Of a DNA stretch of 39,008 bases, positions 6,274-39,008 are shown one piece after another. Position 1 is the stretch's first letter. Every line of letters starts with the position of its first letter. Origin of the DNA: a virus (lineage: Duplodnaviria > Heunggongvirae > Uroviricota > Caudoviricetes); IMG/VR virus record IMGVR_UViG_2737471857_000016, positions 1-39,008 of that record. One strand, written 5' to 3'. Position numbers and translations under genes: made by a program. The notes below the pieces were generated by a model. That model was given only the letters and a program-made list of their open reading frames with translations. It was not told where the DNA came from and did not search any database.

Positions 6274-6311
6274 GTTAGCCTCTGTTGTTATGCCAAAAAT
6301 AAAGGCCACCG

Positions 6312-6512
6312 TCAGGCAGCCTTGTTATTCTGTTTACCAAGTTCTCTGGCAATCATTGCCGTAGTTCGTATTGCCCATTTATCGACATACTTCCCATCCT
6401 CCATTACAGGAAGCATTTCTTCAGGCTTAACCATGCATTCCGATTGCAGTTTGCATCCATTGCATCGCTTGAATTGTCCACACCATTGATTTTTATCAAT
6501 AGTCGTAGTCAT
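6312..6512 (-). CDS. ral: Ral-like restriction-alleviation protein (66 aa)
   Basis: 66 aa, begins MTTTIDKNQW, immediately downstream of N in pL operon, as lambda ral; identity recalled not verified. Confidence 0.55.
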   Translation of the reverse strand: MTTTIDKNQWCGQFKRCNGCKLQSECMVKPEEMLPVMEDGKYVDKWAIRTTAMIARELGKQNNKAA

Positions 6513-7894: not shown

Positions 7895-8611
7895 TCAAAC
7901 CAGCCTTAGTTTTGTCTCAATTGCAACGCCTATAATCTTGCAGTTTCCATTGATTGGCACGAGAGGCCATGCAGGATTAAGTCCCTTGAGGTATTTATTT
8001 CCGCCGTCGATTATCAGCTTCTTGAATGTTGCTTCGTTAGAGTCAGAAAGTTTTGCTATGACCAAGCTGCCGTTGATCGCCTCCCTTCCGGTATCGAAAA
8101 GAACGAATGTTCCCTCTGGAATGCTTAACCCAACCGGTGCCGTCATTGAATCACCTTCCACTTTAAGCCAGAACGCATTACCTTGAATATGCGCGTCAGA
8201 CTCAAGCCAAACATCTATGTCTTTAATGGTGTATGGTTCGCATGCTTCACACCACGAGCCAGCCTGGATACTGCTTAACACCGGATACCTCTTTCCTGCT
8301 CTGTATTCCCCTGCATACCTTACGTTGGCATCGCTCTTAAGGCTTTCTGCCTGTTCTGCAACCTTGGCAGCAATTGACTGGCTAAAATCAGCAATTGAGA
8401 CTTGCAACAAACGTGCAAAACCAGATGCGACCTCAACGTTTAGCGCGTTTCTGCCATTAAGATAATGCCCTACCGCTCCTTGGGTGATACCCAGTTCATC
8501 AGCGATTGAGTATTGGGTTATTCCCAATTCTTTCTTTTTTGACTCATACAAAGCCTTAAGCCGCTTAGCGTCTTCGAGCTGTTCTGTCGTCAGTGATTTT
8601 TTATTTTCCAT
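7895..8611 (-). CDS. cI: CI-type prophage repressor (HTH + S24 LexA-like peptidase domain)
   Basis: Strong resemblance to lambda CI throughout (LTQEQLEDARRLKA..., FWLEVEGNSMTAP... equivalents); divergent from cro across an operator region. Confidence 0.9.
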   Translation of the reverse strand: MENKKSLTTEQLEDAKRLKALYESKKKELGITQYSIADELGITQGAVGHYLNGRNALNVEVASGFARLLQVSIADFSQSIAAKVAEQAESLKSDANVRYAGEYRAGKRYPVLSSIQAGSWCEACEPYTIKDIDVWLESDAHIQGNAFWLKVEGDSMTAPVGLSIPEGTFVLFDTGREAINGSLVIAKLSDSNEATFKKLIIDGGNKYLKGLNPAWPLVPINGNCKIIGVAIETKLRLV

Positions 8612-8717
8612 AGCTTAATTCTAATAGCTAAGGTACTTAAACTAAAAATACCCTGAGTATTGATTGCTTTGAATACCTGTAGTATTCTTTGTTCATGGTT
8701 AATAACGGAGAGTGCAT
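8612..8717. promoter_or_regulatory. OR operators with divergent pRM/pR
   Basis: 17-bp palindromes AAATACCCTGAGTATTG (8646..8662) and GAATACCTGTAGTATTC (8671..8687) between cI and cro starts. Confidence 0.6.
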
Positions 8718-8912
8718 ATGATTCGAATGACACTTGCCGATTACGCCAAAATCCATGGACAGGCTAAAGCAGCCAGTGACTTTGGTGTAATCCAGTGCGC
8801 TATCAGCAAGGCCATTCTGGCAGGCCGTAACATTATGGTTACGGTAAAGCCTGATGGCAGTGTGATTGGAGAGGAAGTTCGTCCTTTCCCAAGCAACAAG
8901 AAAAACAAATAG
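8718..8912 (+). CDS. cro: Cro repressor
   Basis: Resembles lambda Cro (…[20 protein letters not shown]…[16 protein letters not shown]); GGAG SD upstream of ATG 8718. Confidence 0.8.
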
Positions 8913-9020: not shown

Positions 9021-9299
9021 ATGCAACTTACAAGTACTCGCAAGAAAGCGAATGCAATTACAAGCAACATCCTGAATCGAATTGCTGTACGTGGTCAGCG
9101 AAAGGTTGCCGACGCGTTAGGGATTAATGAATCGCAAATTTCGCGATGGAAAGACAGCTTCATCCCAAAGATGGCCATGCTTCTGGCTGTGCTGGAGTGG
9201 GGTGTTGAAGACGAGGAATTAGCGGAGCTGGCAAAGAAAGTAGCCATGGTGCTGACAAAAGAAAAGCCTCAAGACTGCGGCAACAGTTTTGAGGCCTGA
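9021..9299 (+). CDS. cII: CII transcriptional activator
   Basis: Close resemblance to lambda CII (…SQISRWK…IPKMAMLLAVLEWGV…). Confidence 0.85.
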   Translation: MQLTSTRKKANAITSNILNRIAVRGQRKVADALGINESQISRWKDSFIPKMAMLLAVLEWGVEDEELAELAKKVAMVLTKEKPQDCGNSFEA

Positions 9300-9335
9300 T
9301 GTAGAAAGACTGGATCAATCCACAGGAGTAATTAT
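9256..9335 (-). ncRNA. OOP-like antisense RNA (terminator well defined, 5' end approximate)
   Basis: On minus strand a 12-bp stem (9266..9295) followed by TTTTCTTTTG lies inside the 3' end of cII, as for lambda OOP. Confidence 0.4.
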
Positions 9336-9495
9336 GACAAAACGTCGTAAGAAATACCAGGAAAAAGAAGAGATTCGACACCCTGATTCACCTGAGGGAT
9401 TAGTGGTAGCCGCAGCAAATAACAGGGCGTTCGCAGAGCGCCTTGTTGGTGTTTACAGACTAGCCAAAGCAGGAGTGAAACATGGGCGTCGTTAA
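9334..9495 (+). CDS. small basic hypothetical protein (53 aa)
   Basis: ATG 9334 preceded by AGGAG; sits between cII and the replication initiator. Confidence 0.35.
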   Translation: MTKRRKKYQEKEEIRHPDSPEGLVVAAANNRAFAERLVGVYRLAKAGVKHGRR

Positions 9496-9544
9496 GTTAG
9501 CTGATTACAGGCATAACCCTGTACAACATCAGGAGGCATCCAGT

Positions 9545-10383
9545 ATGGGGTATGTCTCTATACACCGCCAGTTTATGGACAGCAGGCTCTATAAGGACTC
9601 TCAGGCAGTACATCTTTGGCTTCACTTAATCCTCAAGGCTAATCACGAATCTACTGTCGTCAATACGGATATTGGGCCGATAACTGTTGATCGCGGTCAG
9701 ATGATAACTGGACGCCCGTCTCTGGTCAGAGAAACATTCATCCCCGACAACAAAGTTCGGAGCTTATTACGGACTTTTGAGTCGAAAGGTATGCTTAATA
9801 TTTGCTCGATGGGAAAGAAATTTAGCCTGTTTACAATCGTTAAATATGACGATTTTCAGTCAAAAAATTGTCCAACGGTTGTCCAACGGTTGTCCAACGG
9901 TTGTCCAACGCAAACACCAGTAATGGCGCGGCTCTCAGCGGAGATTGTCCAACGGTTGTCCAACGGTTGTCCATAAACAATAATATAAATAATATCTCTA
10001 ATACTGACGTATTAGAGAGTGCCACAGCAGACAAAAAGTCTGACAAGAAAAAACCTTCCGTTAGCTGTCAGGATGTTGTCGATGCTTACCACGAAATCCT
10101 TCCTGAAGCGCCAAGAATCCGCGCACTGAATGACAAGCGTAAAAACCAGATCCGAACGTTCTGGCGCAAAGCCGGAGTGATAACCCGCCAGCTTGACGGG
10201 CATGGGTTCACGATGCAGGACTGGAGAAATTATTTGAGCTACGTAGGCGAAAATTGCCGATGGATGTTCGAAGAGCGCCCAAACCATCAGCGCGGAACCG
10301 TCTGGCACAAAAAGGGATTTGATTTCCTGCTTAACGATAATACCTACCTGAAAGTTCGTGAGGGTGAACACGATGACCGATAA
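9545..10383 (+). pseudogene. O-like replication initiator, split by frameshift inside its iteron array
   Basis: N-terminal ORF (AGGAGG SD, ATG 9545) ends at TAA 9974..9976; C-terminal part continues in another frame open from 9850 to 10383; deleting one 11-bp iteron restores one ~276-aa ORF. Confidence 0.6.
9868..9973 (+). repeat. origin iterons: 11-bp direct repeats TTGTCCAACGG (4 copies, then 2.5 copies) followed by AT-rich tract
   Basis: Directly visible tandem repeats 9868..9910 and 9945..9973; AT-rich 9974..10015; located inside the O-like gene as ori-lambda iterons are. Confidence 0.8.
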
Positions 10384-11809
10384 TTTTTATGCGCCGCCCC
10401 ATAGCATCGAGGCAGAGCAGGCGGTGATTGGTGGATTGCTTCTGGATGATGACAGCAGTGAGCGCGTCCAGAAAGTTCTGGCGATGCTGAAGCCTGATTC
10501 ATTTTACAGCCGACCACACAAAATCATTTTCGAAGAAATAACCAGAATGCACCGTGAGCAAAAGCCAGTAGATGGCCTGACGCTTTTCGATGAACTGGAG
10601 CGTAAATCGTTAACGGCGTCTGTTGGCGGTTTTGCTTATATCGCTGAGATCGCAAAGAACACGCCAAGCGCAGCAAACATCGTTGCTTATGCAATGCAGG
10701 TTCGCGAAACCGCAATGGAACGCTACGCCATCAACCGCATGACTGAAGCGACGGAATTGCTCTATTCCCGCAATGGAATGACTGCAACGCAGAAGTACGA
10801 AGCTATTCAGGCGATTTTCACGCAACTGACAGACCATGCAAAAACCGGATCGCGTCGCGGCCTTCGCTCATTTGGTGAGGTCATGGAAGACTGGGTTAGC
10901 GACCTTGAGAAGCGATTTGATCCATCAGGCGAACAACGGGGAATGAGCACAGGGATCCCATCGCTGGACAGGATGCTGTCACCGAAAGGTCTGGTGAAAG
11001 GCTCTCTGTTTGTCATTGGCGCTCGCCCTAAGATGGGGAAAACGACGCTATACAGCCAGATGGCAATCAATTGCGCAGTGCATGAGAAAAAGCCCGCATT
11101 GATGTTCAGCCTTGAAATGCCAGGTGATCAGATACTGGAAAAACTGGTAGGGCAGAAGTCTGGTGTTAACCCGAATATTTTTTACCTTCCGGCGACAAAT
11201 GACGCCGATGACGGCTATCAGGGTGATTACGATGGTGACTTCAACAGGGCGATCGAAACAGCCAATCGCTTGAGTGAAATCGACATGCTTTACATCGACG
11301 ACACGCCGGGATTATCTCTGGCTCAAATCGTCAGCGAAAGCCGTCGAATCAAGCGAGAAAAAGGATGTGTTGGCATGATTCTGGTCGATTACCTGACACT
11401 AATGACAGCTGAGAAGGCCGATCGCAACGACCTTGCTTACGGCATGATCACCAAAGGACTGAAGAACCTTGCCAAAGAGCTTGATTGCGTTGTTGTGCTT
11501 CTGACACAGCTTAACCGCGCACTGGAAAGCAGAACCAATAAACGCCCATTACCAAGTGACTCACGAGATACAGGGCAGATTGAACAGGATTGCGATTATT
11601 GGGTGGGGATCCATCGTGAAGGTGCTTTTGATGACAGTGTTCCACCTGGTGAAACCGAACTAATCCTTCGTCTCAATCGTCATGGCAATACCGGCACGGT
11701 GTATTGCATTCAGGCAAATGGCGCTATTTATGACACAGACCAACAGTCTGCTGAAATGCGCCGCCGTGAACGCGAGGAACCGCAATCCAAGAAGAAAGGA
11801 GGATTCTGA
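10373..11809 (+). CDS. DnaB-like replicative helicase (P22 gp12-type)
   Basis: DnaB N-terminal domain (SIEAEQAVIGGLLLD) and Walker A GARPKMGKTT; GAGGGTG SD; ATG overlaps end of O-like gene. Confidence 0.9.
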   Translation: MTDNFYAPPHSIEAEQAVIGGLLLDDDSSERVQKVLAMLKPDSFYSRPHKIIFEEITRMHREQKPVDGLTLFDELERKSLTASVGGFAYIAEIAKNTPSAANIVAYAMQVRETAMERYAINRMTEATELLYSRNGMTATQKYEAIQAIFTQLTDHAKTGSRRGLRSFGEVMEDWVSDLEKRFDPSGEQRGMSTGIPSLDRMLSPKGLVKGSLFVIGARPKMGKTTLYSQMAINCAVHEKKPALMFSLEMPGDQILEKLVGQKSGVNPNIFYLPATNDADDGYQGDYDGDFNRAIETANRLSEIDMLYIDDTPGLSLAQIVSESRRIKREKGCVGMILVDYLTLMTAEKADRNDLAYGMITKGLKNLAKELDCVVVLLTQLNRALESRTNKRPLPSDSRDTGQIEQDCDYWVGIHREGAFDDSVPPGETELILRLNRHGNTGTVYCIQANGAIYDTDQQSAEMRRREREEPQSKKKGGF

Positions 11810-37835: not shown

Positions 37836-39008
37836 TTGCTGTTGAAACGCCGTCTTATTATTGCTGCTTCTTTGTTCATTTTTAACTTATCGTCTGGTTT
37901 TGCGGCGGAAAACATTCCTTTTTCACCTCAGCCTCCAGAGATTCATGCCGGCTCCTGGGTATTGATGGATTACACCACCGGTCAGATCCTCACCGCGGGT
38001 AATGAGCATCAACAGCGCAATCCCGCCAGCCTGACAAAGCTGATGACGGGCTATGTCGTGGATCGCGCTATCGATAGTCATCGCATTACGCCAGACGATA
38101 TTGTCACCGTGGGGCGCGATGCGTGGGCGAAAGATAATCCAGTGTTTGTCGGTTCTTCACTGATGTTTTTGAAAGAGGGCGATCGCGTATCGGTACGTGA
38201 TTTAAGCCGTGGTTTAATTGTGGATTCCGGAAATGACGCTTGTGTTGCACTGGCTGACTATATTGCCGGTGGGCAACGGCAGTTTGTTGAAATGATGAAC
38301 AACTATGCCGAGAAGCTGCATCTCAAGGATACGCATTTTGAAACAGTGCATGGTCTGGATGCACCAGGTCAGCATAGCTCGGCTTATGATTTAGCTGTGC
38401 TTTCTCGCGCTATCATCCACGGCGAGCCCGAGTTTTATCATATGTACAGTGAGAAAAGTCTCACCTGGAACGGTATCACCCAGCAAAACCGTAACGGGTT
38501 ATTGTGGGATAAAACCATGAATGTTGACGGCCTGAAAACGGGTCATACTTCTGGTGCCGGGTTTAATCTCATTGCTTCGTCTGCAGATGGGCAGCGTCGT
38601 CTCATTGCAGTGGTAATGGGGGCTGACAGTGCAAAAGGTCGTGAGAAAGAGGCAAGAAAATTACTGCGTTGGGGGCAACAAAACTTTCCCACGGTGCAAA
38701 TTTTGCACCGTGGGAAAAAGGTTGGTACGGAACGCATCTGGTATGGCGATAAAGAAAATATCGCCCTGGGAACGGAACAAGAGTTCTGGATGGTGCTACC
38801 GAAAGCCGAAATTCCACATATCAAAGCCAAATATACCCTTGATGGTAAAGAGCTCACTGCGCCAATTAGCGCCCATCAGCGGGTAGGGGAAATTGAACTT
38901 TACGACCGTGATAAACAGGTGGCGCACTGGCCGCTGGTTACCCTGGAATCTGTCGGGGAAGGCAGCATGTTTTCTCGCCTGAGTGATTATTTCCACCATA
39001 AGGCCTGA
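37836..39008 (+). CDS. dacD: D-alanyl-D-alanine carboxypeptidase DacD (PBP6b), host gene
   Basis: 390 aa (TTG start per track); signal peptide; SxxK motif (ASLTKLM), SGN, KTG; recognised as E. coli DacD. Confidence 0.9.
   Translation: MLLKRRLIIAASLFIFNLSSGFAAENIPFSPQPPEIHAGSWVLMDYTTGQILTAGNEHQQRNPASLTKLMTGYVVDRAIDSHRITPDDIVTVGRDAWAKDNPVFVGSSLMFLKEGDRVSVRDLSRGLIVDSGNDACVALADYIAGGQRQFVEMMNNYAEKLHLKDTHFETVHGLDAPGQHSSAYDLAVLSRAIIHGEPEFYHMYSEKSLTWNGITQQNRNGLLWDKTMNVDGLKTGHTSGAGFNLIASSADGQRRLIAVVMGADSAKGREKEARKLLRWGQQNFPTVQILHRGKKVGTERIWYGDKENIALGTEQEFWMVLPKAEIPHIKAKYTLDGKELTAPISAHQRVGEIELYDRDKQVAHWPLVTLESVGEGSMFSRLSDYFHHKA

Follow-up and report, generated by a model that had tools for sequence, protein, structure and literature searches.

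An additional 11-bp iteron in the embedded origin divides the O-like initiator gene of a P22-like Escherichia prophage

The DNA analysed here, a 39,008-bp stretch referred to as the window, carries the replication module of a P22-like (HK620/Sf6-like) prophage integrated beside dacD. It derives from the 154,559-bp contig JWZF01000035.1 of GCA_000819145.1, a draft assembly of an Escherichia genome. The O-like initiator gene of the module belongs to the phage L gp18 / Sf6 gp43 family, as a frameshifted copy (pseudogene). An earlier note on this DNA had proposed that an extra iteron copy splits the gene, and comparison with relatives bears this out, as one 11-bp unit is the exact difference between this copy and all intact ones. 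The element is of an already known type of phage origin and initiator, and the allele carried here, a broken one, is unique.

The divided gene and its origin

The features of the module, and the host gene that closes the window, are listed below in window coordinates.

7895-8611, minus strand: cI-type repressor gene
8712-8912: cro
9021-9299: cII
9334-9495, plus strand: small conserved ORF, homologue of Sf6 gene 42 / HK97 gp53, overlapping the start of the initiator gene
9482-9976, plus strand: 5' piece of the O-like initiator gene (phage L gp18 / Sf6 gp43 type), identified by PHROG 345 and by alignment
9850-10383, plus strand: 3' piece of the same gene in the -1 frame, encoding the linker and C-terminal domain
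9862-9868, plus strand: A_AAA_AAT heptamer, the only candidate -1 slip site, with both frames open and in the correct phase
9868-9911, no strand assigned: left iteron array, four copies of TTGTCCAACGG, the last ending ...ACGC (three copies in relatives)
9912-9944, no strand assigned: inter-array spacer, 33-34 nt, maintaining the 11-bp phase
9945-9973, no strand assigned: right iteron array, 2.6 copies, the same number as in relatives
9974-10018, no strand assigned: AT-rich tract (GC about 0.22-0.28) with a palindrome at its end
10373-11809, plus strand: DnaB-like replicative helicase gene (P22 gene 12 type), from Pfam DnaB and DnaB_C matches and the annotations of relatives
37836-39008: host gene dacD (Peptidase_S11 and PBP5_C), 97-99% identical to E. 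coli dacD

Downstream of the helicase gene are nin genes, Q, lysis genes and a complete P22/HK620-type virion gene set. As dacD is the last ORF in the window, the right end of the prophage lies between 37132 and 37836. An integrase gene is found directly left of the window start (L104:1-539), on the strand opposite to the early-left genes.

A repeat scan recovered 3.9 + 2.6 copies of TTGTCCAACGG between 9868 and 9973, followed by the AT-rich tract, in agreement with the four tandem copies and further partial array of the earlier note; the spacer it described is also present, at 33-34 nt rather than 35. Copies start at 9868, 9879, 9890 and 9901 in the left array and at 9945 and 9956 in the right, which ends with a truncated copy (9967-9973), and the extra 11 bp can be any one of the identical left-array copies. 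The start-to-start gap between the arrays is 44 bp (4 x 11), so that all iterons are in 11-bp phase. At up to one mismatch the motif occurs six times, compared with 0.68 expected; six occurrences were reached in 0 of 100 shuffles, and no occurrence beyond these six was found in the 39-kb window. The GC minimum (0.22-0.28 across 9960-10019) is directly 3' of the iterons, and a perfect inverted repeat with 10-bp arms (9995-10004 / 10009-10018) closes the AT-rich tract, which is presumed to be the unwinding element of the origin. A promoter and terminator scan returned only weak consensus matches, located inside the iterons and the ori palindrome.

Mid-gene repeats, then an AT-rich tract, then an inverted repeat are the elements of a lambda-type intragenic origin, and all are present in this order. 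The repeat regions of the Sf6 and HK620 records carry rep_origin annotations, and in phage L six 11-bp repeats have been named as the likely ori (PMC8022706). From these likenesses, the iteron region can be identified as the putative intragenic origin already known from the replication modules of phages L, Sf6 and HK106. The earlier view of the gene as an O-like initiator with its own origin inside is supported both by these annotations and by PHROG 345 matches.

The 5' piece encodes an N-terminal, putatively ori-binding domain, and residues 1-160 of the 296-aa proteins of relatives align in frame within 9482-9976. From the iterons onwards the piece continues as an out-of-frame tail to a TAA at 9974-9976. 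The other frame is open throughout 9850-10383, after a TGA at 9847-9849, and its product is 99.4% identical to residues 130-296 of Sf6 gp43. Both the stop at 9974-9976 and the second frame open from 9850 had been read correctly in the earlier note. As 11 is not a multiple of 3, the added unit causes the frame to be lost inside the linker and the stop at 9974-9976 to be reached. For the 3' piece, no credible start codon or Shine-Dalgarno sequence was found, TTG codons within the iterons being the sole start candidates, and the gene caller of the source record called no gene there. In an observation that concerns the downstream gene, the helicase ATG overlaps the normal initiator stop at 10373-10383 (ATGACCGATAA).

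Two in-frame ATGs, at 9482 and 9545, each follow an AGGAG-type Shine-Dalgarno sequence. Annotations of relatives begin at the upstream ATG (equivalent to 9482), giving 296 aa, and databases contain the protein in a 296-aa as well as a 275-aa form. As the Met of the second ATG is absent from the Salmonella, Serratia and Hafnia homologues, the true start is probably 9482 rather than 9545. When one 11-bp unit was removed in silico, an 828-nt ORF (275 aa plus stop) was restored from the ATG at 9545. Thus the single ORF of the earlier note was recovered on removal of one copy, but the repaired initiator is likely to be 296 aa from 9482 and not about 276 aa from 9545. The protein obtained by the deletion is 100% identical to WP_447311791.1 / P0011 of intact prophages, and the repaired gene contains zero bases unique to the window.

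Iteron number and reading frame in relatives

Full-length matches in phages and complete E. coli genomes were 1040 bp long, against a query of 1051 bp, and alignment placed the length difference in the left array, with three copies in the relatives and four in the window. Apart from this 11-bp addition, the copy in the window does not differ in length from its counterparts in Sf6, HK106 and approximately 140 E. coli prophages, all of them single 891-nt ORFs. Among 100 related loci, 96 have the canonical layout of 3 + 2.6 copies, two have an in-frame duplication of 66 bp, one has a point change in one iteron and one (L026, IMGVR_UViG_2778261453_000002) has a right array one copy, or 11 bp, short. 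The ORF is intact in 82 of the 86 loci that could be translated (275 aa from the second ATG, equivalent to 9545), and it is 22 aa longer through the in-frame duplication in two. It is frameshifted in the other two, by -11 bp in L026 and by a -1 change in an A-run (GAAAAAACC to GAAAAACC) in L092. Counting iterons in homologues, the check suggested in the earlier note, therefore showed that relatives with 3 + 2.6 copies have one continuous ORF, and encoding of the protein in two pieces was not found in intact relatives. As homologues with three copies are continuous, the split is an anomaly confined to this one sequence and does not characterize the family.

The four-copy left array was found in none of 145 complete E. 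coli genomes and in none of 43 phage records that have this ori. Exact-pattern searches for it, with and without flanks, gave 0 matches in IMG/VR, in a set of one genome per GTDB species and in JGI metagenomes; the three-copy pattern, used as a positive control, matched 97 IMG/VR contigs. Approximately 137 complete E. coli genomes have a match that spans the origin, and all of these fall in the identity band of intact alleles (canonical or ±66 bp), with no ±11-bp allele among them as judged by that band. The truncated 164-aa product is recorded from one contig of one draft assembly only.

Clustering at 90% identity groups the truncated product with two other out-of-frame alleles, whose DNA was deduced from the protein tails. 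P0005, present in both Logan and ENA, has the tail ...CPTVVQRKHQ*, which is exactly that of a two-copy left array (-11), and P0006 has the tail ...RLSNGCP*, that of a single-array allele with one extra copy (+11). With the window and L026, this makes four independent ±11-bp events. Iteron slippage thus recurs, with out-of-frame products that are rare singletons in the collections compared.

Products of 274, 296 and 318 aa are common in-frame length classes in Escherichia and Shigella, as are those of 277 and 299 aa in Salmonella. The step between classes is exactly 22 aa, or 66 bp, which is the length of the spacer plus three iterons, and it is this higher-order unit that is gained or lost in the in-frame alleles. 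Examples include L004:921-1170, L028, P0023 (318 aa) and P0003 / P0057 (274 aa). The main tolerated change seems to be unequal exchange between the two arrays. No ±33-bp allele was seen among the initiator alleles compared. This allele pattern is the mark of purifying selection acting on DNA that serves as both origin and coding linker, and not that of a switch.

Protein family and related replication modules

PHROG 345 ('replication initiation O-like') is matched by the 5' piece at positions 25-143 (E 1.4e-21) and by the 3' piece at positions 120-292 (E 1.6e-56), and intact Sf6 gp43 spans positions 1-292 (E 5.9e-85). The 3' piece also matches PHROG 24933. No Pfam profile was found for either piece or for the intact Sf6 protein, with DUF7376 the only match and that sub-threshold; the lambda O family profile (Pfam Phage_rep_O) is not matched. 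No NCBIfam family and no PDB relative were found by sequence. Close relatives are Sf6 gene 43, the 'O' genes of HK106, HK75, mEp234 and IME10, and gene 18 of the Salmonella phages L and ST64T. Phage L gp18 shares 15% identity with lambda O and 25% with P22 gp18 (PMC8022706).

An AlphaFold2 model of an intact homologue, built from an 18-sequence alignment, had a mean pLDDT of 51.7, and was confident only for the C-terminal domain (residues 189-291), with low confidence in the iteron-encoded linker. Foldseek against the PDB gave no significant match; the best E-value was 0.36, for weak winged-helix-like matches. Across the initiators of HK022, VT2-Sakai, Stx-phage and HK620, which have other N-terminal domains, the identity of the C-terminal 127 residues is 97-100%. 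In 102 phage records, the C-terminal domain is always joined to an N-terminal domain and always encoded beside a DnaB-like helicase gene, with no stand-alone gene for it. By analogy with lambda O, we infer that the C-terminal domain would recruit the helicase and the N-terminal domain would bind the iterons.

In lambda, ori is in the middle of the O gene and corresponds to the linker between the N-terminal ori-binding and C-terminal helicase-recruiting parts of the protein. Like the origin in the window, it is a set of iterons within the initiator gene, after which come an AT-rich region and a palindrome. The two differ in that lambda has four iterons of about 19-20 bp, whereas the window has 11-bp units in two arrays, and in the helicase partner, which is a DnaB-type helicase in the window and the P loader in lambda. 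Classical lambda ori- deletions within the iterons preserve the O frame, and in this they parallel the in-frame ±66-bp alleles of the family described here.

The closest known systems are in the same family, namely phage L gene 18, Sf6 gene 43 and the 'O' genes of HK106, HK75 and mEp234, with identities of 98-100% for the E. coli and Shigella phages and approximately 84% at the DNA level for Salmonella phages. The 11-bp iteron, the layout of three copies, spacer and three copies, the AT-rich tract and the DnaB-like helicase are all shared with the phage L / Sf6 / HK106 group, but the genes of that group are single ORFs of 296-299 aa, while the copy in the window has the extra iteron and is frameshifted. 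HK620 O and its ori (L103, 10369-10464) have an identical layout of 3 x 11 bp, spacer and 3 x 11 bp, the same helicase and a C-terminal domain 97.6% identical to that encoded in the window. HK620 differs in its iteron, an 11-bp unit of ATTACCAGCAR type, in its N-terminal specificity domain and in that its ORF is intact. Its AT-rich tract and palindrome are nearly identical to those in the window despite the different iterons.

The origin/linker looks like a junction at which specificity modules are swapped. The iteron-encoded peptide, CPT[V/D/G/N]VQRLS, differs among genera (alignment A2, columns 135-190). Most sequences have one and the same variable residue in the two arrays (V/V, D/D, G/G or N/N), and a few are mixed. 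From alignment, the two iteron arrays thus seem to have evolved largely in concert.

Source of the extra copy and its consequences

We lean towards a +11-bp slippage in the left array (from three copies to four) that is really present in the strain and inactivates the initiator. The other credible reading, which we hold more tentatively, is that the strain has the canonical three-copy array and that the draft assembler miscounted a short tandem repeat, as the earlier note had allowed. A period-11 tract of 32 nt would form a loop in a de Bruijn graph at k of 21 or less, and a 29-nt stretch is common to both arrays. Furthermore, only a single 154-kb draft contig carries the allele, and draft or metagenome assemblies are the source of every out-of-frame allele, with none in the approximately 137 complete E. 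coli genomes, a distribution that miscounting of repeats during assembly would also produce. However, an ordinary read is longer than the complete ori (about 106 bp), and its copy number would be resolved by most pipelines, while the occurrence of the P0005 ±11-bp allele in two sources suggests that such alleles can be real. To look for other frame breaks, ORFs of relatives (1713) were compared with the window by tblastn. A single real frame break was found, at the initiator, where 59 proteins are split, and 24.7 kb of the window lies under full-length single-frame matches at 90% identity or more, free of frameshifts relative to relatives. As there is no other real frame break, the window sequence is not generally error-prone. 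Apparent breaks at approximately 6300-6400 and approximately 10400 were spurious, each resting on a single query ORF; at the former position the queries had weak similarity and ran antisense to the early-left genes, and the query at the latter was antisense to the initiator and helicase genes.

As the repaired gene is identical to intact ones and shows no secondary decay, the change is either very recent or confined to the assembly, and this identity fits a very recent mutation and a miscount equally. The closest sister among complete E. coli genomes is 98.4% identical over 83% of an 8-kb query, and at that distance it supplies no sister allele with which to date the event. On this evidence, sequence alone would not have the power to separate a recent mutation from an artefact in draft GCA_000819145.1.

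The earlier note had also raised a reversible on/off switch. A contingency switch, in which iteron slippage toggles the replication competence of the prophage and the OFF state is kept as a regulated option, would draw on a repeat unit that is not a multiple of 3 and lies in a coding region, on the at least four independent ±11-bp events across databases and on the fact that reversion through loss of one copy is mechanistically possible. Simple-sequence contingency loci are similar in that the repeat is in the ORF, the unit is not a multiple of three and the frame switches with each unit. However, at a phase-variable locus ON and OFF states are both frequent, and here the OFF alleles are rare singletons, with 0 in 145 E. 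coli genomes, one iteron-based case in 86 IMG/VR loci and no four-copy array in three large collections. The four-copy allele is unique, about 96% of relatives are canonical and the population is near-monomorphic for the in-frame count. The tract, at 3-4 units, is far shorter than known phase-variable tracts, the genomes and loci compared contain no evidence of high switching rates at the iterons, and the usual length variants are in-frame changes of ±66 bp, as expected if selection purges frameshifts. We therefore regard the switch as very unlikely. A bolder version, in which gain and loss of an iteron is a heritable, reversible toggle by which a lineage 'grounds' the prophage and occasionally re-arms it, with leaky -1 slippage and exploitation of the repeat's dual role, is more improbable still.

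The least probable reading is that the gene still functions, either as two separate polypeptides or through a -1 ribosomal slip that yields enough full-length initiator. The heptamer A_AAA_AAT lies exactly where both frames are open, and the product of a slip there would differ from the intact protein by only a few extra linker residues. Beyond the heptamer, the hallmarks of programmed -1 frameshifting, a stimulator and conservation, were missing: the downstream RNA has no stimulatory structure (fold z = -0.30), the upstream sequence has no Shine-Dalgarno-like stimulator and the two-frame layout is in no relative examined. Production of two polypeptides is opposed by the 102 phage records described above and by the 3' piece itself, which has no Shine-Dalgarno-linked start and was left uncalled in the source record.

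Under the favoured reading, a real +11-bp slippage, the normal embedded origin would have had two in-phase arrays of three 11-bp iterons, the AT-rich tract and the palindrome, and slipped-strand mispairing in the left array would have added one 11-bp iteron. The product would be the N-terminal domain with a scrambled tail ending at 9974-9976, and the C-terminal domain, in the -1 frame and with no start of its own, would not be made. In the intact system, by analogy, the N-terminal domain would occupy the iterons, the AT-rich tract would melt and the C-terminal domain would bring in the helicase. If the change is present in the strain and not in its assembly alone, loss of function would follow, and the prophage is predicted to be incapable of self-driven replication after induction. 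As the added unit retains helical phase, the four-copy origin is probably still usable as a DNA site if initiator is supplied in trans. Reversion could occur through loss of one copy.

The otherwise complete-looking prophage is, as deposited, probably replication-defective. Such a lesion would be missed by prophage 'intactness' callers, and annotation pipelines drop the 3' half of the gene. The locus leaves the current view of lambdoid replication unchallenged. It illustrates one DNA segment under two constraints, in which iterons in 11-bp helical phase must also be translated; because they are translated, only changes of 33 or 66 bp would be tolerated, giving the 274-, 296- and 318-aa alleles, and single-unit slippage would produce rare dead alleles. 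Because the normal initiator stop overlaps the helicase start (10373-10383), translational coupling from initiator to helicase would also be lost. The early stop at 9976 leaves approximately 400 nt untranslated before the helicase gene, and helicase expression may drop.
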